Shown: positions 6,608 through 26,274 of the stretch, piece by piece
Layout of the letters: each line of letters starts with the position of its first letter
How positions within the stretch are numbered: the stretch's first letter is position 1
Assembly (NCBI RefSeq): GCF_014904695.1
Contig: NZ_JACXXN010000003.1
Span: forward strand, 237,405-277,404
Length of the DNA: 40,000 bases
Source of the DNA: Nostoc sp. MG11
Lineage (GTDB): Bacteria; Cyanobacteriota; Cyanobacteriia; Cyanobacteriales; Nostocaceae
Direction: 5' to 3'
Made by a program: the position numbers and the translations under genes
Notes under the pieces: generated by a model
Told to the model about the DNA's origin: nothing
Databases searched by the model: none
The model's input: only the letters and a program-made list of their open reading frames with translations

Positions 6608-8143
6608 CTAACGAATCAAGTCGTAGGAAATATCAGTTTTGGATGGGATATTGGTGTTGCGATCGATTTCCTCAAACAGGGTATTTACAGTCCAGTTGAG
6701 CAGGTTGATCACACCTTGATAGCCGATAGTAGCGTAGCGGTGCAGGTGGTGACGATCCATGATGGGATAGCCGATTCTCACCAGAGGAGTCTTGGTATCG
6801 CGCCACAGGTACTTACCGTAGGTATTGCCGACAAGGAAGTCTACGGGTTCGGTGAACATCAATGAACGCATATGCCACAAGTCTTTACCAGGCCAAACAG
6901 TTGCATTCTTACCAAAGGGGCTAGAAGCAAGCAGTTCTTTCATTTCTGCTTCAAATACTTCGTTGCTGTTGTGAACCAAGATATGCACAGGTTCAGCACC
7001 CATTTCCAGCATGAAGCCTACTACGCTGTAAACTAAATCTGGTTCACCGTAGATAGCAAAACGCTTGCCGTGAATCCATGAGTGGGAGTCAGTCATGGCA
7101 TCAACTGCCTGACCGCGTTCAATTTCCAATTGTTCGGGAATGGGGATACCACTCAGTTCGCTGAGTTTCATCAAGAACTCATCAGTACCCTTAATACCCC
7201 AAGGACGGGAAACTGAGGTTGGTTGCTTCCACTCTTTTTCAATGTACTCGCGGGTTTTGGGAGTAGAGTGTGCTTGCAGAGCGATCGTTGCTTTAGCATT
7301 AATTGAATCTGCTGCATCTTCTAGCTTTGTACCACCTGGATACATATCGAATTCACCTGTGTTTGGTGAATCCAGGTAGTCGCTGTTGTCAGCGAGAATG
7401 GTGTAGTCAAAGCCGAACAAGGAAGCAATCCGCTTGATTTCCCGGTTATTGCCTACGTAGGTGTCAAAACCTGGGATGAAGTTGATCTTACCATTGCTGG
7501 TTTCTTTCTTATGACCTGCTGTCAGGTTAGAAAGAATTCCCTTCATCATGTTGTCGTAACCAGTGATGTGGGAACCAACAAAGCTAGGGGTGTGAGCGTA
7601 GGGTACTGGGAAATCTTGAGGAACTGAACCAGCTTGCTTAGAGTTATTGATGAAGGCTTGTAAGTCATCACCAATTACTTCTGCCATACAGGTGGTGCAG
7701 ACAGCAATCATCTTCGGCTTGTAGAGTTGGTAAGAGTTCGCCAACCCGTCAATCATGTTTTGTAAACCACCAAACACGGCTGCATCTTCAGTCATCGAAG
7801 AAGATACACCAGAGAATGGTTCTTTGTAGTGACGGGTTAAGTGGGTGCGGAAATAAGCAACGCAACCTTGAGAACCTTGAACAAAAGGTAGAGTGCCTTC
7901 AAAACCAACAGCAGCAAAGATTGCTCCTAAAGGTTGGCAACCTTTAGCAGGGTTAACCGTTAAAGCTTCACGAGCGAAGTTCTTTTCACGATACTCCCAA
8001 CCCTTCGTCCATTCTGCAACCCGTTTTACTTCTTCGGGGTCGTGACCGTTTTCAAATTGCTTTTTGTTTTCAAATAGTTGTTGGTACTCCGGCTGGTGGA
8101 ATAGCTCAACGTGGTCTTGAATTTTTTCTGGATTCTGAGGCAT
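6608..8143 (-). CDS. nifK: Nitrogenase MoFe protein beta chain NifK
   Basis: Full-length NifK. The 'MPQNPEKIQDHVELF...' start is preferred, as in Anabaena NifK; the track ORF begins 15 nt further upstream. Confidence 0.95.
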   Translation of the reverse strand: MPQNPEKIQDHVELFHQPEYQQLFENKKQFENGHDPEEVKRVAEWTKGWEYREKNFAREALTVNPAKGCQPLGAIFAAVGFEGTLPFVQGSQGCVAYFRTHLTRHYKEPFSGVSSSMTEDAAVFGGLQNMIDGLANSYQLYKPKMIAVCTTCMAEVIGDDLQAFINNSKQAGSVPQDFPVPYAHTPSFVGSHITGYDNMMKGILSNLTAGHKKETSNGKINFIPGFDTYVGNNREIKRIASLFGFDYTILADNSDYLDSPNTGEFDMYPGGTKLEDAADSINAKATIALQAHSTPKTREYIEKEWKQPTSVSRPWGIKGTDEFLMKLSELSGIPIPEQLEIERGQAVDAMTDSHSWIHGKRFAIYGEPDLVYSVVGFMLEMGAEPVHILVHNSNEVFEAEMKELLASSPFGKNATVWPGKDLWHMRSLMFTEPVDFLVGNTYGKYLWRDTKTPLVRIGYPIMDRHHLHRYATIGYQGVINLLNWTVNTLFEEIDRNTNIPSKTDISYDLIR

Positions 8144-9983: not shown

Positions 9984-10934
<951 letters not shown>

Positions 10935-12953: not shown

Positions 12954-14165
12954 TTAGTGATGCGCCGCCAGTGCTTGCTCCTGTTCTTGTAACCAGCCAG
13001 CATCATCATTTTTGAAGGGTGAGAGGGCGCGTAAACGTTCTACAATACCGGGCATGACTGCGATAACTTGATCGATTTCGGCTTCTGTGGTGTAGCGACA
13101 AAGGCTGAAGCGAATGGAACCATGCAAAGTGGTGTAGGGTAAGCCCATAGCCCGGAGAACGTGAGAAGGTTCCAAAGATCCAGAGGTGCAAGCAGAGCCA
13201 GATGAGGCACAGATACCGTATTTATTCAAGGACAGTAAGATAGCTTCACCTTCGATGTACTTGAAGCCAATATTGGTGGTGTTTGGCAATCTCTGCGTAG
13301 AGTCACCATTCACGACACAATCGGGAATTGTAGCGAGTAAAGTTTGTTCTAGGCGATCGCGCAGCCTTCTTTCTCTCTTGGTTGCTTCTTCTAAATGTAA
13401 CAGTTCCAGTTCAGCTGCTTTGCCTAAGGCAATAATTCCTGGAACATTCTCTGTTCCCGCCCGACGTCCGCGTTCTTGGTGTCCCCCAATTAACAAAGGA
13501 CGGAACCTGACGCCACGCCGCACATACAAAGCACCAATTCCTTTAGGTGCATGAATCTTATGACCAGATAGGGTTAACATATCTATGGTACTGGTCTTCA
13601 TATTCAAAGAAAGTTTTCCCACTGCTTGCACCGCATCTACGTGGAAAATAGCACCGTACTCTTTAACTCGCAAGCCAATCTGTTCAATCGGGAAAATCGT
13701 GCCAGTTTCGTTGTTGGCGTACATAATTGTCACCAAGGCGGTGTTACCTGTCAAGGATGCTTCTAGTTCATCTAGATCCAGCTGCCCTTGATGATTTACT
13801 GAAAGATAGGTAACACTGTAACCTTGGGTTTCTAATTGTTTGCAGACATTCAACACCGCTGGGTGTTCAACTTGCGTGGTGATGATGTGTCGTCTATCTG
13901 GGTGCGCCAATAATGCAGCGCGAATCGCAGCGTTATCTCCTTCAGTACCACAACTGGTGTAGACAATTTCTGACTCATCTGCTCCCAGAAGGGCTGCAAG
14001 TTGTTCTCTTGCTGTTTTCACTCCTTTACCAAGTTGCCCACCAAAGGTATGCATACTAGAGGGATTACCGTAATAGTCAGTTAGGTAAGGCAGCATCGCC
14101 TCTACAACTTCCGGGTCTACCTTGGTGGTGGCATTATTATCGAGATAGATGCAGTTCTTTTGCAT
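12954..14165 (-). CDS. nifS: Cysteine desulfurase NifS
   Basis: Class V aminotransferase with PLP lysine context 'LSGHKIHAPKG' and active-site 'SSGSACTSG'. I prefer the ATG at 14165; the track uses a TTG 12 nt further upstream. Confidence 0.95.
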   Translation of the reverse strand: MQKNCIYLDNNATTKVDPEVVEAMLPYLTDYYGNPSSMHTFGGQLGKGVKTAREQLAALLGADESEIVYTSCGTEGDNAAIRAALLAHPDRRHIITTQVEHPAVLNVCKQLETQGYSVTYLSVNHQGQLDLDELEASLTGNTALVTIMYANNETGTIFPIEQIGLRVKEYGAIFHVDAVQAVGKLSLNMKTSTIDMLTLSGHKIHAPKGIGALYVRRGVRFRPLLIGGHQERGRRAGTENVPGIIALGKAAELELLHLEEATKRERRLRDRLEQTLLATIPDCVVNGDSTQRLPNTTNIGFKYIEGEAILLSLNKYGICASSGSACTSGSLEPSHVLRAMGLPYTTLHGSIRFSLCRYTTEAEIDQVIAVMPGIVERLRALSPFKNDDAGWLQEQEQALAAHH

Positions 14166-14192
14166 TGTTGTCTTCAATTACGAATTATTTAA

Positions 14193-14549
14193 TTAGGCTT
14201 CTGCTGCTACTGCTTGGTGTTGACGCTTTTGCAACTGCTCGGAATATTTCTGGGAATAACATTGAAACCAACGCTCCCAGTAATCTTGTTTATTTGTTAA
14301 CTTTGCAACTACACGGTTGTAATTGGCAAACCAGCCTTCCCAGTAATCACTGGGCTGATTGACGCAACCATTGCAGGTGGGACAGCCAGCTTTACACTGA
14401 GGCACAGTATGAATACTACCAACGCAGTTTGTGCAAAGTTCGGGGTCAATCCAGTGCTGTCCATCAACTACCTTAACTGCATTAGTGGGACAGACAGACA
14501 AACAGAGATTGCAGGAAATACATTGGCTAGTAAGTATTTTGTAAGCCAT
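14193..14549 (-). CDS. fdxN: Bacterial-type 2x[4Fe-4S] ferredoxin FdxN, uninterrupted
   Basis: 118 aa. Motifs 'CISCNLCLSVCP' and 'CTNCVG...CKAGCP'. Lies between nifB and nifS. Confidence 0.9.
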   Translation of the reverse strand: MAYKILTSQCISCNLCLSVCPTNAVKVVDGQHWIDPELCTNCVGSIHTVPQCKAGCPTCNGCVNQPSDYWEGWFANYNRVVAKLTNKQDYWERWFQCYSQKYSEQLQKRQHQAVAAEA

Positions 14550-17286: not shown

Positions 17287-17574
17287 TTAAATTGTGTCTG
17301 CTTCAAAAGGTTTAAGCAGGCGAAGCTGAGTGAAATAACGAAAATCTTCTGTATTTCGTGTTACCAAAGTTAAGTTATGCACTATGGCAGTTCCACTAAT
17401 AATGGCATCACCTAACGTTATTCTTCGCATGTGTCTTAGTAAAACTGCTTGCTCAAGAACTATTTGAGAAATTGGCACAACTTGAGTAACCTGAAAAAAC
17501 TGCTCAAAGTAAAGACGATCTGTTTGAGTTCGTCGATGATGTAGCAGGGAATAGGGAATATTTTGGAATCCAAC
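17287..17574 (-). pseudogene. N-terminally truncated PIN-domain (VapC-like) toxin remnant
   Basis: The C-terminal 'GDAIISGTAIVHNLTLVTRNTEDF' is a typical VapC C-terminus. The frame is open only back to an in-frame stop at 17575-17577. About 35-40 N-terminal residues, including the first acidic PIN residue, are missing, and there is no antitoxin gene. Confidence 0.6.
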
Positions 17575-17595
17575 TTACCAAATCGCCTCTTAAGC

Positions 17596-17937
17596 TTAAG
17601 CAACTGCGTAGCCCGTGTAGGGCCTTACTTCCGGTGAACGAAACCCAAGTACAATGTGGTTTTTAGGGATTCCAGCCCGTTCTAAATCGGCGGCAATGCC
17701 TTCTTCAGTCCCATCCCGTTGAATCCAGATTTTGCCATCAATCAGGTCAACATGAACCAGACAGCCATGAATACGGCGATCGCCATCCCAACCCACATCC
17801 ATCCACAAATAGCGATCGCGGGTTCGATCAAACACTACCTCCGACTGAATATCGGCATAGGAATAGGTAATTGAAGCATATTCACTCAGGATATTTTCAA
17901 TTACTTGGCGATAGTTGTCTAATTGGGTGTGATCCAT
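17596..17937 (-). CDS. xisI: XisI family protein (fdxN-element excision controlling factor-like)
   Basis: 113 aa. 'YLWMDVGWDGDRRIHGCLVHVDLIDGKIWIQRDGTEEGIA' matches the XisI family. Overlaps xisH by 19 nt. Confidence 0.85.
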   Translation of the reverse strand: MDHTQLDNYRQVIENILSEYASITYSYADIQSEVVFDRTRDRYLWMDVGWDGDRRIHGCLVHVDLIDGKIWIQRDGTEEGIAADLERAGIPKNHIVLGFRSPEVRPYTGYAVA

Positions 17938-18341
17938 TGTTTGATAACCTCCTGTTTTGAATCAAAGGTAATCAGCTTTAAACGTCGATTTTTCAGCAAA
18001 AGTTTGCCAATGGGTTCTTCAAACAAATCATCGAAGACGTTGCTAGGTATTGCAAGATATAACGCCCGCTCTGGCTCCAACTCAGTCAATATATCTTGAT
18101 ATAAAACATACTGACCCAACGCTTTCTCTAAATCATCAACATCCGATCTTCCAGTAAAACTTTTAATCTCAACTGCAATCTTACATTCTGCTTTCTCTGC
18201 CGCTAATAACTGTCTAGCACCTAGATCAACGTACAAGTCTTTTTTACCAAACTTAAGAGTTAGTGGGTCATGAGTAATTGTCCATTTGTCCTTAATCAAA
18301 GCATTTTTGACATTATTGTGATAAATGTCTCTAGCTGGCAT
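17919..18341 (-). CDS. xisH: XisH family protein (endonuclease-like fold)
   Basis: 140 aa. 'MPARDIYHNNVKNALIKDKWTITHDP' is the typical XisH N-terminus. A D...E-x-K arrangement is present ('LYVDLGA ... AVEIKSF'). Confidence 0.85.
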   Translation of the reverse strand: MPARDIYHNNVKNALIKDKWTITHDPLTLKFGKKDLYVDLGARQLLAAEKAECKIAVEIKSFTGRSDVDDLEKALGQYVLYQDILTELEPERALYLAIPSNVFDDLFEEPIGKLLLKNRRLKLITFDSKQEVIKQWITPN

Positions 18342-19496: not shown

Positions 19497-19529
19497 AGAT
19501 CCCCGACTTTTCAAACAAGTCGGGGATCT
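19497..19529. repeat. Perfect 13-bp inverted repeat hairpin (agatccccgactt / aagtcggggatct) with a 7-nt loop
   Basis: Read directly, 10 nt after the oxidoreductase stop. There is no U-tract. It looks like the common Nostoc dispersed hairpin family. Confidence 0.7.
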
Positions 19530-19630
19530 GGACACCGTGCAAGATGTTTCTGCAATAACTCTGAAATTTGGAAACATTACTCAACCTAGTGTATATACTC
19601 GTAGTCAAAATCTCAACAGACACGAGTATT

Positions 19631-22600
19631 ATGCTGGACTGGTTAGCTATTTGGGGTGTAACTCAGGCCGCCGGGTTGATTTTTAAACCCATTCTTGAAG
19701 ACTTAGCCAAGGATGCTGCTAAAGATTGGGCTAAAGATTTATTAAAAGGCATCCCTGGCAAGATTTTCCAGAAACTTAAGAAGGAAGATACAGAAATTGC
19801 TGCTGGTAAAGCATTAAAGGAATTTTTGCAACTCATGCAGCAGCAGCTAAAGGTTCGTTGCAAGCTTGGTGAGGTTGAAATTAAAGAGTACACCAAAGAC
19901 ATCAAGAAATTTATCAGCGAGAAGTCGGTTACAGAAATTCTGGGTAAGGCTTTTGATATTAATTGTGAATCTCTAGACGCTAAAACCCTAGAAGATAGTT
20001 GGAATAGGCTGCAATTAAAACCTCTGCCATCTAAGTTTAACTGGCAATCACTTACAGAACAGTATTTTACACAAGTCCAAGAACTTCTTTTAGATTCAAA
20101 AGAATTACACCATATCCTAGAATTACAAAAATTATCTGATATTGAAATAAATACAAAAGAAATTGCTGGTGTTGTTCCAGAGTTTAATTTAATTAAATAT
20201 CAAGAAGGAATCCGCGAACGGTATGGCAATCTTAAGTTAGATAGCTTAGATACTAGCGGCTATGCCTATAACGAACTGAAATTATGGCGAATTTTTACTG
20301 CTCAAAATGTTCGGGAAGCTCATCAGGTTTTAGCACAAGTTCACGAACTGCCTAAAGAACATCTGAGACGGCTGCGAGAATGTAACCAAATAGAAGCAGA
20401 AATTGAATTAGAAGAATTAGAACGCCACAAACGGGTTTATTTTGAACAGCCGATCCGTTCAGTATTAGATGTTATCAATGAAAAGCAAAATTATAAATAC
20501 ATCGTGATTTTGGGGGATCCTGGTTCAGGTAAGTCTACATTGTTGCAATTTCTGGCTTTGAATTGGGCAGAGTCCCCACTGGATAATGTTATCTCATTAC
20601 CGATTCCGTTGCTAATTGAGTTACGCACTTATATGCGACGACGGGAAGATAAAGAATGCAATAATTTTCTAGAATTCTTCCATAAGTGCAGTGGAACGAT
20701 TCATCATCTCAATCAGCATCAACTAGATGAACAACTAAAGGCGGGTAATGCTTTAGTGATGTTTGATGGTTTAGATGAGGTATTTGACTCTGGTAAACGA
20801 GAGGATGTAATTACAGATATTCATCGCTTTACTAATCAATATCAGAATGTGCAGGTGATTGTCACTTCTCGCATTATTGGCTATAAACCGCAACGATTGC
20901 GTGATGCTGAGTTTCGCCACTTCATATTACAAGATTTAGACTCAGAACAAATTCAGGATTTTATCAACCGTTGGCATGAGTTAACTTTTACCGATGCAGT
21001 TGATAAAGTTAGAAAACGGGAACGCCTGCAAAGAGGGATTGACACTTCCAAATCTATTGCAGAATTGGCGGGAAATCCTCTGCTGTTGACGATGATGGCA
21101 ATTCTTAATCGTAATCAGGAGCTACCAAGAGATAGAGCTACACTTTATGAACAAGCATCGCGGGTGTTGCTGCATCAATGGGATGTGGAACGCGCTTTGA
21201 TAGAAGATAAGAGGTTAGATCCCAAGACTATTGATTATAAAGATAAGCAAGCGATTCTGCGTCAGGTTGCTTATCTTATGCAAACTGGTGAGAAAGGTTT
21301 GGCAGGTAATTTGATTAATGAAAATGATTTAGTCAAAGTTCTGACTGATTATCTCAAAACCATAGAATTTGATAAACCTAGAGAAGTTGCGAAGGTGATG
21401 ATTAATCAACTGCGGACTCGCAACTTTATGTTATGTTTCTTGGGTGCGGATTATTATGCTTTTGTGCATCGGACATTTTTAGAATATTTCTGTGCTTGGG
21501 AGTTTGTCTGGCAGTTTAAAGAAACGCAAACGCTGACTATTGAGAAACTTAAGAATGAAGTTTTTGGCAAGCACTGGCAGGATGAAAGTTGGCATGAGGT
21601 CTTGCTACTAATTGCAGGAATGATTGAGCCAAGATTTGTTGGGGAGATTCTTGATTATTTAATGGCGCAAGATGGCGAAGAGGAAAAGTTTGTCAATCTC
21701 TTTTTAGCGGCTAAGTGTCTTGTAGAGGTGAGAAATCGCTCGGCGATCGCGTCAACGGCTAATAAATTACTTAATAAGCTTAAAGACTTAACTAAATATG
21801 ACCTCTGGTACTATTACGTCCTGTATCACGATGAAGAAGAAACTAAGCTAGTTCAGGAAATTCGCACTCAAGCAGTCACAGCAATTGCAACGACTTGGCA
21901 AGAATCTCTTGATACCAAAACCTGGCTCAAAGAACGCGCTACTCAAGATGATAGTGCCAGTGTGCGACGTGCAGCAGTTCAAGAATTAGCCCAGAATTTC
22001 AAAGATGACCTCGACACCAAAACCTGGCTCAAACAACGTGCTACCCATGATAATAGCTGGTATGTGCGACGTGTAGTAGTCCAAGAATTAGCCCAGAATT
22101 TCAAAGATGACCCCGATACCAAATCTATCCTCAAAGAACGTGCTACCCAGGATGATAATGCGAGTGTGCGACGTACAGCAGTAGAAGAATTAGCCCAGAA
22201 CTTCAAAGATGACCCCAACACCAAATCCATCCTTAAAGAACGTGCTACCCAAGATGATAACGAAGATGTGCGAGGTGTAGCAGTTCAAGAATTAGCCAAG
22301 AACTTCAAAGATGACCCTGATACCAAATCCATCCTCAAAGAACGCGTTACCAAAGATGATAGTCCAAGCGTACAACTTCTAGCAGTCCAAGAATTAGCCC
22401 AAAACTTCAAAGATGACCCCGACTCCAAAAACTGGCTCAAAGAACGCGCTACCAAGGATGATAACTGGTATGTGCGACGTGCAGCAGTCCTAGAATTAGC
22501 CCAGAACTTCAAAGATGACCCCGATATCAAATCCATCCTTAAAGAACGTGCTACCAAGGATGATAACGAAGATGTCCGAGGTGTAGCAGTCCAAGAATTA

Positions 22601-23560
22601 GCCCAAAACTTCAAAGATGACCCCGACACCAAAACCTGGCTCAAAGAACGTGCTACCAAGGATGATAGCCCAAGCGTGCAACTTCTAGCAGTCCAAGAAT
22701 TAGCCCAGAACTTCAAAGATGACCCCAACACCAAAACCTGGCTCAAAGAACGCGCTACCAAGGATGATAACTGGTATGTTCGACGTGTAGCAGTAGAAGA
22801 ATTAGCCCAGAACTTCAAAGATGACCCCGACACCAAATCCATTCTTAAAGAACGCGCTACCCAAGATGATGACAACGATGTGCGACGTACAGCAGTCCAA
22901 AAATTAGCTCAGAACTTCAAAGATGACCCCGATACCAAATCCATCCTCAAAGAACGCACTACCCAAGATGATAACGAAGATGTCCGAGGTTTAGCAGTCC
23001 AAAAATTAGCTCAGAACTTCAAAGATGACCCCGACACCAAATCCATCCTCAAAGCACTCGCTACCCAGGATGATAACAACTATGTGCGAGGTGCAGCAGT
23101 AGAAGAATTAGCCCAGAATTTCAAAGATGATCCCGACACCAAATCCATTCTCAAAGAACGTGCTACCAAGGATGATGACTATGTGCGAGGTACAGCAATA
23201 GAAGAATTAGCTCAAAATTTCAAAGATGATCCCGACACCAAATCCATCCTCAAAGAACGCGCTACCCAGGATGATAACTGGTATGTGCGACGTGTAGCAG
23301 TCGAAGAATTAGCTAAACACTTTAAATATTACGCTGATTTGTTTGACATCTACTACCAGTGCGCTGTTAATGACCCCTTTAAGGATAGCCATAATCCTCC
23401 CTATAACCCCAACCCTCGGCGCATTGCACTAGAGATAATTATCAAGCAATTTCCTCAGCATCCCCAGACTTTACCACTGTTGCGCGATCGCGCCAAAAAT
23501 GACCCAGATGAGCAAGTGCGGGAATTTGCTCAGAAGAAGTTAAAGCAGTTGGAAGGGTAA
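19631..23560 (+). CDS. NACHT-domain STAND NTPase with an unassigned N-terminal module and 14 C-terminal HEAT-like repeats
   Basis: Walker A 'ILGDPGSGKSTLL', Walker B 'LVMFDGLDEV' and 'VIVTSRIIGY'. The C-terminus carries the repeat motif 'DDxxxVRRxAVxELAQNFKDDPDTKSILKERA'. I prefer the ATG at 19631; the track ORF starts at a TTG at 19568. Confidence 0.85.
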   Translation: MLDWLAIWGVTQAAGLIFKPILEDLAKDAAKDWAKDLLKGIPGKIFQKLKKEDTEIAAGKALKEFLQLMQQQLKVRCKLGEVEIKEYTKDIKKFISEKSVTEILGKAFDINCESLDAKTLEDSWNRLQLKPLPSKFNWQSLTEQYFTQVQELLLDSKELHHILELQKLSDIEINTKEIAGVVPEFNLIKYQEGIRERYGNLKLDSLDTSGYAYNELKLWRIFTAQNVREAHQVLAQVHELPKEHLRRLRECNQIEAEIELEELERHKRVYFEQPIRSVLDVINEKQNYKYIVILGDPGSGKSTLLQFLALNWAESPLDNVISLPIPLLIELRTYMRRREDKECNNFLEFFHKCSGTIHHLNQHQLDEQLKAGNALVMFDGLDEVFDSGKREDVITDIHRFTNQYQNVQVIVTSRIIGYKPQRLRDAEFRHFILQDLDSEQIQDFINRWHELTFTDAVDKVRKRERLQRGIDTSKSIAELAGNPLLLTMMAILNRNQELPRDRATLYEQASRVLLHQWDVERALIEDKRLDPKTIDYKDKQAILRQVAYLMQTGEKGLAGNLINENDLVKVLTDYLKTIEFDKPREVAKVMINQLRTRNFMLCFLGADYYAFVHRTFLEYFCAWEFVWQFKETQTLTIEKLKNEVFGKHWQDESWHEVLLLIAGMIEPRFVGEILDYLMAQDGEEEKFVNLFLAAKCLVEVRNRSAIASTANKLLNKLKDLTKYDLWYYYVLYHDEEETKLVQEIRTQAVTAIATTWQESLDTKTWLKERATQDDSASVRRAAVQELAQNFKDDLDTKTWLKQRATHDNSWYVRRVVVQELAQNFKDDPDTKSILKERATQDDNASVRRTAVEELAQNFKDDPNTKSILKERATQDDNEDVRGVAVQELAKNFKDDPDTKSILKERVTKDDSPSVQLLAVQELAQNFKDDPDSKNWLKERATKDDNWYVRRAAVLELAQNFKDDPDIKSILKERATKDDNEDVRGVAVQELAQNFKDDPDTKTWLKERATKDDSPSVQLLAVQELAQNFKDDPNTKTWLKERATKDDNWYVRRVAVEELAQNFKDDPDTKSILKERATQDDDNDVRRTAVQKLAQNFKDDPDTKSILKERTTQDDNEDVRGLAVQKLAQNFKDDPDTKSILKALATQDDNNYVRGAAVEELAQNFKDDPDTKSILKERATKDDDYVRGTAIEELAQNFKDDPDTKSILKERATQDDNWYVRRVAVEELAKHFKYYADLFDIYYQCAVNDPFKDSHNPPYNPNPRRIALEIIIKQFPQHPQTLPLLRDRAKNDPDEQVREFAQKKLKQLEG
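21911..23335 (+). repeat. 14 tandem 102-bp (34-codon) intragenic repeats; one unit is 99 bp
   Basis: Unit starts fall at 21911, 22013, 22115 and so on every 102 bp to 23135, then at 23234, each checked against the D/N-T-K codons. Units are near-identical at the DNA level. Confidence 0.9.
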
Positions 23561-23575: not shown

Positions 23576-23803
23576 ATGCCCAAGAAAATCAGAGAACTCA
23601 AAAGTTTATTGCTGCAAGCAGGGTTTACCTACCGTCCTGGTAAAGGTAGCCACACTAATTGGTATCATCCCCTCCTACCTGGGAGAGTTACTATATCAGG
23701 TAAAGACGGAAATGATGCTAAAGCTTACCAAGAGAAAGACGTTAATAATGCACTTCAAAGGTTAGAAGAAATTAAAAATACTCAAGAGGAAGAAAAAGAA
23801 TGA
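23576..23803 (+). CDS. hicA: HicA-family mRNA interferase toxin
   Basis: 75 aa. 'IRELKSLLLQAGFTYRPGKGSHTNWYHP' shows the YcfA/HicA pattern. Starts 15 nt after the NACHT gene stop. Confidence 0.85.
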   Translation: MPKKIRELKSLLLQAGFTYRPGKGSHTNWYHPLLPGRVTISGKDGNDAKAYQEKDVNNALQRLEEIKNTQEEEKE

Positions 23804-24024
23804 ATTCTCACTACACAATAATTATTCAATGGTCTGATGAAGATGAGTGTTTTGTTGTCAGTCTTCCTGAATGGGGAGAATTTTGTCACACTCACGGAGA
23901 GACTTATGAAGAAGCTTTTAAAAATGCTCAAGAAGTTTTAGAAATGCTGATTGAATCATCTTTGGCTGACGGTGAAACTCTACCAGAGCCTAAGACGCTA
24001 GGAAAGTCTTTGGAAGTTGCATAA
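23800..24024 (+). CDS. hicB: HicB-family antitoxin (short form, no obvious DNA-binding domain)
   Basis: 74 aa. 'YTIIIQWSDEDECFVVSLPEWGEFCHTHGETYEEAFKNAQE' matches the HicB/UPF0150 fold. Overlaps hicA by ATGA. Confidence 0.85.
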   Translation: MNSHYTIIIQWSDEDECFVVSLPEWGEFCHTHGETYEEAFKNAQEVLEMLIESSLADGETLPEPKTLGKSLEVA

Positions 24025-24049: not shown

Positions 24050-24304
24050 ATGAACACATCTGTAAATACAGCCAAAGTATACGACGAAATTATAGAGTTT
24101 ATTGCTGCTGGAACCACTCCCCAAAGTGTTATCGATTTTAAACTCTCGGATGCAGCTAAAGAGCGCTTAGAGGATCTCGTTTACCGAGCAAAAACTGAAG
24201 GTCTGACAGGAAGTAACCAGCAAGAGTTAGATCATTTCCTCACACTAGAGCATATTATGACATTAGCAAAAGCAAAAGCTCGTAAGTACATTAACCCTAA
24301 ATAA
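24050..24304 (+). CDS. Small helical protein, antitoxin-like partner of the downstream HNH nuclease
   Basis: 84 aa. The C-terminal 'QQELDHFLTLEHIMTLAKAKARKY' resembles small cyanobacterial antitoxin-type proteins. Its stop lies 9 nt before the HNH gene start. Confidence 0.5.
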   Translation: MNTSVNTAKVYDEIIEFIAAGTTPQSVIDFKLSDAAKERLEDLVYRAKTEGLTGSNQQELDHFLTLEHIMTLAKAKARKYINPK

Positions 24305-24313
24305 GTATCCAAA

Positions 24314-24757
24314 GTGTCTCGCTCATATATTAATGCAGAACTGCGGCGTTTAGTTGCCGATCGCGCTGATCATATTTGTGAATACTGTCTCGTCTCTGAA
24401 GTAGATAGATCATCGGGTTGTCAAGTTGACCATATCATCAGCGTGAAACACGGCGGCACTACAGTAGCAGATAATCTCTGCTATGCCTGTATTTTCTGTA
24501 ACTTGCAAAAAGGCACGGATTTGGGGTCAATTAATTGGCAAACTGGCGAACTTGTGCGGTTTTTTAACCCACGCAGAGACTTTTGGGGCGATCATTTTCG
24601 ACTAGATGAGGCTGTAATTCAGCATCAAACAGATATCGGTGAAGTGACTGCACGTATCCTAGATTTTAACAGCGATGAAAGGCTTCTAGAGCGACAAGCT
24701 TTGATTACATCTGATCAGTATCCCTCAGCATCAGCACTAAAACAGATCAATAAATAG
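24314..24757 (+). CDS. HNH endonuclease
   Basis: 147 aa with a GTG start. 'CEYC...CQVDHIISVKHGGTTVADNLCYACIFCNLQKG' gives the HNH catalytic core with two CxxC zinc pairs. Confidence 0.85.
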   Translation: MSRSYINAELRRLVADRADHICEYCLVSEVDRSSGCQVDHIISVKHGGTTVADNLCYACIFCNLQKGTDLGSINWQTGELVRFFNPRRDFWGDHFRLDEAVIQHQTDIGEVTARILDFNSDERLLERQALITSDQYPSASALKQINK

Positions 24758-24974: not shown

Positions 24975-25451
24975 ATGGCTTATCAAAATATTGCAGCCTC
25001 CCTTTCACCACAAGATATCAAAGAAATTAAAGCTGCGCTACAGACAGTCCAACAAAAGATGCCCTTTTTGATTACTCTCAGCACTGAAGAACGGCGCAAG
25101 TTGGTGAAAATGGGCGATAAAAGCCTAGCTTTTGTGAACAATAGCATCACCGCTGCTCAGTCTAACCGCGAAATTCTTCCATCCACCTTTGACGTTGAGG
25201 AACTTGTTCAAGATTATCAATTAGCCGCTACGCTTACCGAACTTTTAATCTCAATGCAGCAACTTACCGAACAGGTAGATGATACCCTAATGGCAGTCGG
25301 TAGTGAAGCTATGACTAGCAGTTTGACTGTTTATGATTACGTGAAGACTGCATCGAAAAAGACTCCAGGCTTAAAGACTGTCGCTGAACAGTTGGGCGAA
25401 CGCTTTAAAGCTATTGGTAAAGGTAAATCTGCAAAAACTCCCGTCTCTTGA
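24975..25451 (+). CDS. Hypothetical helical protein, function unknown
   Basis: 158-aa ORF with an ATG start and ordinary codon texture. I recognise no motif. Confidence 0.55.
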   Translation: MAYQNIAASLSPQDIKEIKAALQTVQQKMPFLITLSTEERRKLVKMGDKSLAFVNNSITAAQSNREILPSTFDVEELVQDYQLAATLTELLISMQQLTEQVDDTLMAVGSEAMTSSLTVYDYVKTASKKTPGLKTVAEQLGERFKAIGKGKSAKTPVS

Positions 25452-25553
25452 TAAATTAATACTCGTCGGCGAGTCTCATATCATTTTCAAAAATCTTTGC
25501 AATAAATAAATTGGCTGTAGGGGTGTACACATGTAGGCCCCTATTTTGTTCAT

Positions 25554-25727
25554 CCACCTTTGAACTCCGTCGGCGAGTATTTGAACTGGATGAATCCACC
25601 TTTGAACTCCGTCGGCGAGTATTTGAACTGGATGAATCCACCTTTGAACTCCGTTGACGAGTATTTGAACTGGATGAATCCACCTTTGAACTCCGTCGGC
25701 GAGTATTTGAACTGGATGAATCCACCT
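25554..25727. repeat. Tandem array: 4 x 42 bp plus a 6-bp partial copy, with TTTGAACT phased every 21 bp
   Basis: Unit 'ccacctttgaactccgtcggcgagtatttgaactggatgaat' starts at 25554, 25596, 25638 and 25680. Copy 3 has 2 substitutions. The octamer tttgaact sits at unit positions 6-13 and 27-34. Confidence 0.9.
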
Positions 25728-26274
25728 CGAAGATTGAAATGTTTAGCCCTGCCAAAGGTTATTCGGGGCTATACAGACAAAACCCATCTTCGTGGGTTTC
25801 AAATTCTTTGAGTCCGCGCAGGCGGACTTTGTTTGTGTAGCCGCGATTTCTAATCGCCAGGTATATTTGCAAAAGTGAGATGCTTCCCTTCCACACACCA
25901 ATAGAATAAAATATTTACTATGAGCTATAGCTATATTTAGAAACGTATGCATACATACAGACAGCAAATCCTAAAAGAAAATAAAGAAACTTGTTTTTTG
26001 CAGAGCTAAATAATAAGATAATAATAGTAATACGATATACAGAATATTGATTTTTAGCTTCATCTACCTCATATTTGAGTGCATCTGAGTACAGCTTAAT
26101 ATATTGCAAAATATCTTGCTTAAATGTTTTCAAAGTCTTACAGGTAAAGTTTCTTGTAGCGAGTACAGAAATTCTTAAACCCTATCCCAAAAATACTAGT
26201 ACCCCCATCATTAAACACTAGCACCCCTACCCCAAGACAAATTTTAAATTTATGTTAAGTCGGGGTTTGGGCGC

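Follow-up and report, generated by a model that had tools for sequence, protein, structure and literature searches.

The 40,000-nucleotide stretch of Nostoc sp. MG11 analysed here (contig NZ_JACXXN010000003.1, positions 237,405 to 277,404; hereafter the window) carries, in a nitrogen fixation (nif) region, a gene for an NLR-related protein that combines an N-terminal NNH2 domain, a NACHT nucleotide-binding domain and an array of HEAT-like repeats. Genes nifB, an fdxN-like ferredoxin gene, nifS, nifU, nifH, nifD and nifK are located on the minus strand below 16.2 kb of the window, and cysE, a gene of the Asr1405 family (asr1405) and nifV on the plus strand from 26.4 kb. The interval between nifB and cysE holds a PIN fragment, XisI, XisH, a zinc-type quinone oxidoreductase, the NLR, HicA, HicB, an open reading frame (ORF) of 84 amino acids (orf84), an HNH protein and an ORF of 158 amino acids.

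An ORF scan of the window placed the NLR gene in a single ORF covering positions 19568 to 23560 on the plus strand, with TTG 19568 as the mechanical start. Because the product read from ATG 19631 is identical over 1309 of 1309 residues to the Nostoc sp. MG11 protein WP_193195419.1, titled "HEAT repeat domain-containing protein" in RefSeq, this ATG, 63 nt 3' of the TTG and the first ATG of the frame, is almost certainly the true start and the TTG is wrong. Residue numbers below count from ATG 19631 unless numbering of the TTG ORF is stated. A terminator-like hairpin lies 5' of the coding sequence (CDS) at ~19500-19530. A promoter and terminator scan of the window gave matches at chance level, and no family was matched in an Rfam search of the window.

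Features of the NLR gene and of the genes directly downstream (positions in the window; aa, residues of the protein; AF2, AlphaFold2; TRF, Tandem Repeats Finder; dS, synonymous divergence)
Feature	Position	Strand	Evidence
Complete CDS, NNH2-NACHT-HEAT protein, 1309 aa + stop	19631..23560	+	ORF scan; RefSeq identity
Extreme N-terminal segment, aa 1-45	19631..19765	+	Family consensus; regional identity; dS
NNH2 (NACHT N-terminal Helical domain 2, PF22734), aa 25-208	19703..20254	+	Pfam, E = 1.9e-61
Polymorphic NNH2 core cassette, aa ~60-200, type A in the window	19808..20230	+	Regional identities; breakpoints; tree; dS
Conserved pre-NACHT linker, aa 201-285 (…YGNLKLDSLDTSGYAYNELKLWRIF.AQNVRE…)	20231..20485	+	Near-invariant columns, low entropy; poor in AF2
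NACHT nucleotide-binding domain, aa 286-450	20486..20980	+	Pfam PF05729; motifs; AF2; Foldseek
Walker A GDPGSGKST, aa 295-303	20513-20539	+	Motif search
Walker B LVMFDGLDEV, aa 375 on (FDGLDE)	within 20753-20782	+	Motif search
TSR (sensor-1), aa 412	20864-20872	+	Motif search
Putative helical and winged-helix STAND region plus helical spacer, aa 451-760	20981..21910	+	Conservation, e.g. GNPLLLTMMAILNRNQELPRDR, FVHRTFLEYFCA
Array of 14 HEAT-like units of 34 aa (102 bp)	21911..23335	+	TRF; unit alignment; HEAT_2
C-terminal capping HEAT-like units, aa 1236-1309	23336..23557	+	Family-conserved; consensus NPR…LL..R…DPD…R..A
HicA	23576-23803	+	Pfam
HicB	23800-24024	+	Pfam
orf84 (84 aa, no family match)	24050-24304	+	ORF scan/Pfam
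HNH protein (147 aa)	24314-24757	+	Pfam

Domain architecture of the NLR

The protein is a NACHT-clade STAND NTPase, and its original prediction as an NLR-like NACHT-HEAT member of this group was borne out by profiles, motifs and fold. The NACHT profile PF05729 matched with E = 2.9e-11 (43.9 bits versus a cutoff of 26.7), and the Walker A, Walker B and TSR motifs that had been named are all present. Walker A fits the pattern GxxxxGK[ST] and is invariant in family alignments. In Walker B, D379-G-L-D-E383 fits D[GAS]hDE, the NACHT Walker B signature according to Kibby et al., "Bacterial NLR-related proteins protect against phage" (10.1101/2022.07.19.500537; Cell 2023), and its columns are nearly invariant in the family. 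In an AF2 model of residues 1-760 the beta-alpha-beta nucleotide-binding domain (NBD) is well formed, with a predicted local distance difference test score (pLDDT) of 70-92. A Foldseek search with this model returned as best folds NLRC4 (E = 1.9e-7), NOD2 (9e-7), NLRP3 (6e-5) and then NAIP5, the four spanning 2e-7 to 9e-4. No solved relative was found at E <= 0.01 by single-sequence phmmer with the NACHT region. Residues 451-700 are strongly conserved and helical; pLDDT is below 50 for residues 469-620, where the alignment is shallow, and the long Foldseek alignments to NLRC4 and NOD2 (~600 columns) have a poor root-mean-square deviation. Conservation points to a winged-helix domain (WHD) in this part of the protein.

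The HEAT array consists of 14 units with 34 residues each except one of 33. This number had been predicted; the units are less alike than the near-identity then ascribed to them, with a mean pairwise protein identity of 73% (range 56-91%). TRF reported a 102-bp period with 13.6 copies and 82% matches at 21926-23313, and Pfam recognised HEAT_2 (E = 4e-79, seven stretches) and HEAT (E = 5e-14). A PF02985 HEAT match at residues 1302-1328 of the TTG ORF corresponds to residues 1281-1307 of the protein. Within the window's array unit positions 4-5, 12, 15-17, 20-21 and 24 are hypervariable on an invariant scaffold, and when 169 units from orthologues were pooled, the same positions again varied most. 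The spacing i, i+1, i+4, i+5, i+8 of positions 16, 17, 20, 21 and 24 fits one helix face. Between units, the ratio of non-synonymous to synonymous divergence (dN/dS) was 1.24 at hypervariable codons versus 0.17 at scaffold codons, the former value being inflated in dN by the choice of these codons for their amino-acid variability. As far as can be judged from sequence, variation of this kind is what one would expect if shuffling of units had diversified a ligand-binding surface. Two ORFs antisense to the array on the minus strand (21979-22230, 83 aa; 22285-22875, 196 aa) are almost certainly repeat artefacts and not genes, since their periodic sequence mirrors the repeats.

The N-terminal module, which had been regarded as unassigned, matches PF22734 (NNH2) over the whole model (positions 1-181 of 181; 207 bits versus a cutoff of 27). 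A match of this region to a known non-effector domain had been envisaged beforehand; the match to a known domain is confident, and nothing in it marks NNH2 as a non-effector. As predicted, the module is lysine-rich and helical: its first ~270 residues contain 11.1% lysine and 11.5% glutamate and are predicted all-helical. The AF2 model of the NNH2 region (75 homologues) is all-alpha with ~10 helices over ~180 residues, the confidence being high for core residues 55-150 (pLDDT 88-96), lower for residues 1-50 (63-75) and poor for the pre-NACHT linker. Within NNH2 proper, the conserved columns of the family alignment are for the most part hydrophobic positions of the core, joined by K35, D36 and K39, with no candidate catalytic residues among them. 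In a Pfam scan at E <= 10 of four variants of the module (cassette types, see below) no enzyme family was detected, in keeping with the earlier failure to recognise a catalytic motif; the scan yielded noise (RIN1, Lyase_8_N, DUF4300) and no link to death-fold, EAD, TRADD-N, Rx_N/CC, HeLo, Helo_like_N or MLKL_NTD families.

Residues 1-45 are the best-conserved part of the module, with 91-100% identity in most orthologues irrespective of whether these carry the type-A or the type-B core described below. The opening hydrophobic segment noted in the original prediction, WLAIWGVTQAAGLIF, is indeed present at the extreme N-terminus as residues 4-18 and is kept across the family. It belongs to a W/G-rich hydrophobic helix (residues 3-18), which is followed by K19-P20 and a strongly amphipathic K/D helix (residues 22-39; hydrophobic moment, muH, 0.50). 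The family consensus of this region reads MxDWLxxWGVxxAVGFxFKPILEDLAKDAAKDxAKDFFK.

Family, synteny and the dimorphic NNH2 core

The NNH names were coined by Kibby et al. (10.1101/2022.07.19.500537), who showed diverse bacterial NACHT proteins to be antiphage with a requirement for the Walker A lysine, and who read the repeats as sensors and the N-terminal domains as outputs. Table S1 of that paper lists NNH2+NACHT+HEAT_2 in Westiellopsis prolifica (TBR56486.1, clade 2) and NNH2+NACHT+HEAT in Okeania sp. (NET46618.1, clade 3), along with NNH2+NACHT+FGE-sulfatase (clade 1) and NNH2+NACHT+TCAD10. The cyanobacterial NNH2+NACHT+HEAT combination was therefore already catalogued; the gene is an ordinary member of a catalogued family, and its framing as a new effector class is not warranted.

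Sequence searches delimited this family. A phmmer search with NNH2 alone against 1.84 billion representatives gave 285 clusters at E <= 1e-3, and in nearly all of the 150 matches listed NNH2 starts at residues 1-5. Among 45 diverse long representatives, all of which contain NNH2, 42 carry NACHT and 36 HEAT; a few carry TPR and one carries GUN4. With residues 1-760 as query 2889 homologues were found at E <= 1e-10, the best 120 being Nostocales proteins annotated just as "HEAT repeat" or "NACHT domain-containing protein". The orthologue in the model strain N. punctiforme is ACC79201.1 (UniProt B2J6Z3). NNH2-NACHT-HEAT is the standard architecture of a small, catalogued, cyanobacteria-centred family. 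In the homologues surveyed NNH2 was never fused to a recognised effector or enzymatic domain and never found on a second protein.

Candidates for standalone NNH2 adaptors were rejected: P0017 is an NLR split by a Tn5-like insertion sequence (IS), and the other short or mid-length matches scanned are NACHT truncations or fragments. In a locus of JGI metagenome 3300041964 (L081, 6001-10591) an NNH2-NACHT-HEAT paralogue is broken by a Tn5-type transposase gene. Gene calling turned its NNH2 part into a "standalone" protein of 320 aa; downstream of this follow what is left of the HEAT region and a gene for a ParE toxin. This transposon-split paralogue explains many short NNH2-only database entries.

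Relatives were sought in one genome per species. In total, 189 were found, of which 80 loci (L001-L080) were fetched and compared with the proteins of the window by tblastn. In ~60 Nostocales species the NLR gene is located 3-7 kb from nifB on the opposite strand with cysE downstream. Given this shared position, it is not strain-specific accessory cargo; of the accessory island in a nif cluster that had been proposed, the nif setting and the downstream HicA, HicB and HNH genes stood. Intact orthologues are encoded by ORFs of 865-1343 aa with 0-14 units of the FKDD type. Of the 80 copies, ~12 (about 15%) are truncated to less than 600 aa, and one copy is interrupted by an IS. In loci L069-L078 nifB is absent within 10 kb of the NLR relative.

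Comparison of the syntenic orthologues revealed a dimorphism in the NNH2 core. The backbone (residues 200-700) is mostly ~85-95% identical to that of the window. A type-A core, as in the window, was present in ~55 species (77-94% identity), and a type-B core with ~44% identity to it was present in the same gene and at the same locus in 13-15 species, including N. linckia NIES-25, the genome of which is complete. Further core types are carried by L057 and L079, and types A, B and others all score as NNH2 in Pfam (E = 1e-58 to 1e-63). The cassette is delimited by sharp DNA breakpoints at CDS nucleotides ~180 and ~600, with 45-66% identity between them and 85-100% on either side. All 48 columns that discriminate A from B fall within residues 44-186 and none within residues 205-775. 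On a NACHT-based tree, type-B carriers are scattered among type-A carriers. Between A and B dS is ~1.5 (saturated) versus 0.07-0.37 in the flanks, and dN/dS is 0.29. No covariation of cassette type was seen with the rest of the protein (residues 205-775) or with alleles of the neighbours. Since dS between the types is saturated, dS in the flanks is low and tree placement is scattered, the sequence comparisons identify A and B as functional alleles of ancient origin, both under purifying selection, which recombine freely with a backbone that is much younger. This may stem either from a balanced polymorphism of long standing or from conversion events with paralogues as recurrent donors. Paralogues exist, for example in Dendronalium CENA369 with its two loci L070 and L073. 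Positive selection within type A was considered and rejected (dN/dS 0.25).

A separate feature was observed at the 5' end of the gene. Median dS in the first 45 codons is 0.07 versus 0.19-0.37 further in, and the first 60 nt of the CDS are 100% identical in several species that differ by ~10% elsewhere and have the other cassette (window 19631-19810; L058, L062, L064 and L067 at 10001-10180). This suggests that the nucleotide sequence itself is constrained, for example by an element acting in translation or as RNA, or that gene conversion has recently left a tract at the 5' boundary of the cassette.

For neither the dimorphic NNH2 core nor the fixed position in the nif cluster was an earlier description found in the literature. 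New in this work are the nifB-cysE synteny, the ~15% of truncated copies, the variable repeat number, the hypervariable HEAT positions, the dimorphic core and the dispensability of HicAB and HNH, to which we turn below.

Neighbouring genes

HicA, HicB, orf84 and HNH are regarded here as genomic context, which does not imply membership in one system with the NLR. A conserved association of HicAB and HNH with Nostocales orthologues, which the original prediction had proposed to look for, was not found in the 80 loci, where these neighbours are variable or absent. HicAB occurs in two allelic classes (~92-99% or ~59-81% identical to the window's copy; ~95% or ~65-78% in the tblastn comparison) or is missing, independently of the NLR and of the NNH2 cassette type. 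orf84, HNH and the 158-aa ORF are frequent in orthologous loci. Intact NLRs of 1206-1273 aa were found with no HicAB, orf84 or HNH nearby in L002, L009, L054 and L056, and HicAB, orf84 and HNH are therefore not obligate partners of the NLR.

Two loci show orf84 and HNH in a different setting. In Anabaena sp. WFMT (L061) the NLR gene has other neighbours, namely cox, Uma2-like genes and an ATPase pair, yet orf84 and a degraded HNH gene come after it here as well (13627-14331). In L060, a short contig (9.4 kb) of a metagenome-assembled genome, orf84 and HNH accompany the NLR at 6782-7400 in the absence of HicAB. orf84 and HNH may thus be loosely associated with the NLR and could be a small toxin-antitoxin (TA)-like or nuclease module travelling with it.

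The remaining neighbours are recorded as follows: (i) just upstream of nifB (17287-18341, minus strand) lie XisI and XisH, matched by Pfam with E = 3e-44 and 1e-54, together with a PIN-domain fragment of 63 aa; the window has no XisF-type recombinase, and fdxN and nifD are uninterrupted. The flanking cargo of the orthologous loci is variable, and only around half of them have the XisI/XisH pair; it may be what remains of an excision element, or a nuclease pair in its own right. (ii) The 158-aa ORF downstream of HNH (24975-25451, plus strand) has no Pfam or NCBIfam match and is 81-98% identical in most orthologous loci. (iii) A 42-bp tandem repeat at 25552-25727 (4.2 copies, 97% matches), each unit of which has a 7-bp inverted repeat (TCATCCA…TGGATGA), is followed 3' by two GC-rich hairpins at 25780-25829. 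No exact copy of the repeat was found in any of the 81 fetched loci, and it has no Rfam match; ORFs running over it (25456-25755, minus strand; 25560-25811, plus strand) look like repeat artefacts. (iv) Upstream of the Anabaena sp. WFMT NLR (L061, 5720-7587), a 391-aa ATPase-like ORF overlaps a 231-aa ORF by 4 nt beside two Uma2-like ORFs, and the overlapping pair looks like a small defence-type gene pair.

Proposed function and competing explanations

As established above, a single polypeptide unites a NACHT switch whose motifs are intact, a solenoid of HEAT units bearing a hypervariable stripe, and a helical NNH2 module that is non-enzymatic and nearly always terminal. We hold with modest confidence that this NNH2-NACHT-HEAT protein serves most likely as a conflict or defence switch (anti-phage or abortive infection). 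By homology to the antiphage bacterial NACHT proteins of Kibby et al. (10.1101/2022.07.19.500537) a defence or conflict role is plausible, and the hypervariable repeat positions and the frequent pseudogenisation fit such a role. We count repeat-number variation, truncations and hypervariability as conflict-type evolution in favour of this reading, and the ancient dimorphic core likewise speaks for it.

By analogy to NLRs and bNACHT proteins, activation might proceed in three steps. The HEAT surface would bind a trigger, which may come from the phage or be a host component under guard. This would lift autoinhibition, upon which the NACHT domain would exchange its nucleotide and oligomerise. Oligomerisation would cluster the NNH2 modules, which would then deliver the output. 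This output is probably stoichiometric, because neither candidate catalytic residues nor a fused effector nor a separate partner was found for NNH2. The best candidate for it would be the N-terminal helix pair, W/G-rich and hydrophobic in its first part and amphipathic in its second. Once clustered, these helices might perturb a membrane or bind a host factor, and the polymorphic core might act as scaffold or cage. Overall, such a stoichiometric output, delivered by the conserved N-terminal helices and with the core in one of these two supporting parts, appears most likely. Membrane perturbation in particular, a guess of the original prediction, is rather improbable. No better are the chances of a more far-reaching version, namely that NNH2 is a structurally unprecedented non-enzymatic executioner: oligomerisation would free the N-terminal helices to attack the cytoplasmic or thylakoid membrane, and the A and B cores would be under balancing selection by phage inhibitors or guarded partners binding the core. 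NNH2 would then be a bacterial functional analogue of the plant CC-NLR resistosome. Our literature search gave nothing specific on bNACHT membrane effectors or on NACHT/HEAT proteins in heterocysts; a paper on chromatin immunoprecipitation with HetR mentions a different NACHT gene, alr2242.

Known systems resemble the protein to different degrees. The closest are the catalogued NNH2+NACHT+HEAT bNACHT-type entries (10.1101/2022.07.19.500537), with which it shares the three-part architecture, domain order, phylum and PF22734 family, the "antigen-receptor type" of HEAT array, the single-gene organisation and the origin from a multicellular cyanobacterium with many paralogues; unlike these entries as described, the Nostoc orthologue group has a fixed nif-cluster position and a dimorphic NNH2 core. 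With the animal proteins NLRC4, NOD2, NLRP3 and NAIP5 it has in common the NBD fold (E = 2e-7 to 6e-5, probability 1.0), Walker A, the D[GAS]hDE Walker B and a sensor-switch-output arrangement with a C-terminal repeat sensor. It differs from them in its low identity (12-17%), in having HEAT instead of LRR repeats, in lacking a CARD, PYD or BIR death-fold N-terminus and in having no evident adaptor or caspase partner. Functional analogy alone connects NNH2 to plant CC-NLRs (ZAR1-type, with the MADA helix), fungal HeLo and animal MLKL: a non-enzymatic helical N-terminus with a most conserved first helix and a variable remainder, placed for clustering by an NTPase oligomer. The plant CC-NLR/MADA comparison reportedly goes back to Adachi et al. 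2019 and Wang et al. 2019. NNH2 is not a member of these groups, being a multi-helix domain of ~180 aa and not a four-helix bundle, with no Pfam or PDB Foldseek relationship to them. It likewise differs from death-fold, EAD and TRADD-N adaptors, to which it has no profile match, in that it was found just on NACHT proteins or truncated remnants. Fungal NLRs of the HET-E/HET-D type, for which Paoletti, Saupe and Dyrka are said to be the sources, likewise have highly similar tandem repeats in which a few positions are hypervariable; their repeat number is polymorphic, and they too fall into ancient allelic classes at odds with the species or gene tree. They differ in their repeats (WD40, ANK or TPR versus HEAT) and in the N-terminal domain. 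Fusion between cyanobacterial filaments is not known to occur, and allorecognition is therefore not an obvious selective agent.

Several observations weigh against a defence switch with NNH2 as its output. No experimental study of any NNH2 protein was found in the literature. Antiphage function of NNH2 proteins is an extrapolation, because none bears a bNACHT label in passages of Table S1 of Kibby et al. (10.1101/2022.07.19.500537); the 27 tested proteins are tabulated separately in Table S2. PADLOC models do not recognise the protein (best mad8, E = 1e-3; VakA, E = 1e-2). In Foldseek searches the NNH2 model had no match below E = 2 in the PDB (best E = 2.1), and no structural analogue was detected in BFVD. 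CC, HeLo and MLKL bundle structures are present in the PDB. Regarding the N-terminal helix, 19-residue Kyte-Doolittle means peak at 1.32 at the N-terminus and at 1.38 anywhere in the protein, compared with a usual transmembrane cut-off of ~1.6; no segment of the protein reaches transmembrane grade, and WLAIWGVTQAAGLIF is by its hydropathy not a classical transmembrane helix. AF2 models the putative WHD and residues 1-50 with no more than moderate, in part poor, confidence, and the bias in the selection of hypervariable codons reduces the weight of their dN/dS. Furthermore, the sister domains NNH1 and NNH3 lie between an effector or adaptor (calcineurin-like, EAD10) and NACHT in Table S1 of Kibby et al. 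(10.1101/2022.07.19.500537), so that NNH domains may be NACHT-accessory modules rather than effectors. Finally, a mobile defence gene would not usually keep one place in the nif cluster across ~60 species while under purifying selection (dN/dS 0.13-0.25); a housekeeping or regulatory role could be the reason instead. The last two points lead to the main alternatives.

According to the first of these, NNH2 is a clade-specific accessory domain of NACHT with a regulatory, autoinhibitory or oligomerisation function, positionally like FISNA or the NNH1/NNH3 linkers. The protein would then have no dedicated effector and would sequester or scaffold the HEAT-bound ligand or use an unlinked partner. 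Besides the location of NNH1 and NNH3, this is favoured by the restriction of NNH2 to one NACHT lineage (NACHT in 42 of the 45 representatives), by the lack of candidate catalytic residues and of a detectable structural analogue, and by purifying selection on NNH2 like that on the remaining protein. We nevertheless consider it unlikely: NNH2 is terminal in nearly all of the 150 matches listed, conservation within the module peaks in its first 45 residues, and cores of ~44% identity are swapped with no compensatory change in residues 205-775, which is hard to square with a co-evolving interface between a lid and NACHT.

In the second alternative, the NLR has no immune function and signals in connection with nitrogen fixation or heterocyst physiology, similar to the regulatory STAND proteins MalT and AfsR. 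This would explain the position next to nifB and cysE-nifV, shared by ~60 Nostocales species, and would agree with purifying selection and with the UniProt name of the N. punctiforme orthologue, "putative signal transduction protein with Nacht domain". Non-immune regulators of the NLR type exist in bacteria, according to the abstract of 10.64898/2026.09.02.748808. However, Pfam detected no DNA-binding or other signalling output domain, ~12 of the 80 orthologues are truncated and repeat number varies widely. In addition, close relatives occur outside nif contexts (L061 beside cox and Uma2; L069-L078), the surrounding interval is a variable collection of TA and nuclease genes, and the literature search gave no paper tying a NACHT gene to nifB. 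We therefore judge such a role to be quite improbable.

The poorest candidate, a multi-gene NLR-HicAB-orf84-HNH system in which NNH2 is an adaptor recruiting or activating the HicA RNase and/or the HNH nuclease (the toxin adaptor of the original prediction), is very improbable: tight packing on the same strand (gaps of 16, -4, 26 and 10 nt) with no terminator-like site between the NLR stop and hicA in a scan at chance level, and the company of orf84 and HNH in many loci, including Anabaena sp. WFMT and L060 with no HicAB or nifB in the fetched flanks, are outweighed by the intact NLRs devoid of all these genes, the HicAB classes or absence whatever the cassette type, the degraded HNH beside an intact NLR in L061, and the lack of NNH2 on any second protein and hence of a homotypic adaptor logic. 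HicAB is in itself a self-contained toxin-antitoxin pair.

The locus is of interest in three respects. NNH2 has no detectable PDB or BFVD analogue and its N. punctiforme orthologue (ACC79201.1) resides in a tractable strain, which makes the gene a reasonable experimental entry point into NNH2 function. The locus is also a natural experiment, with two ancient cores on a backbone of ~90% identity and repeat arrays that vary in length and in their hypervariable residues; such natural variants could map which parts of the protein set trigger specificity and output. Residing stably between two nif operons, the NLR may protect heterocyst-forming filaments or be regulated in them.

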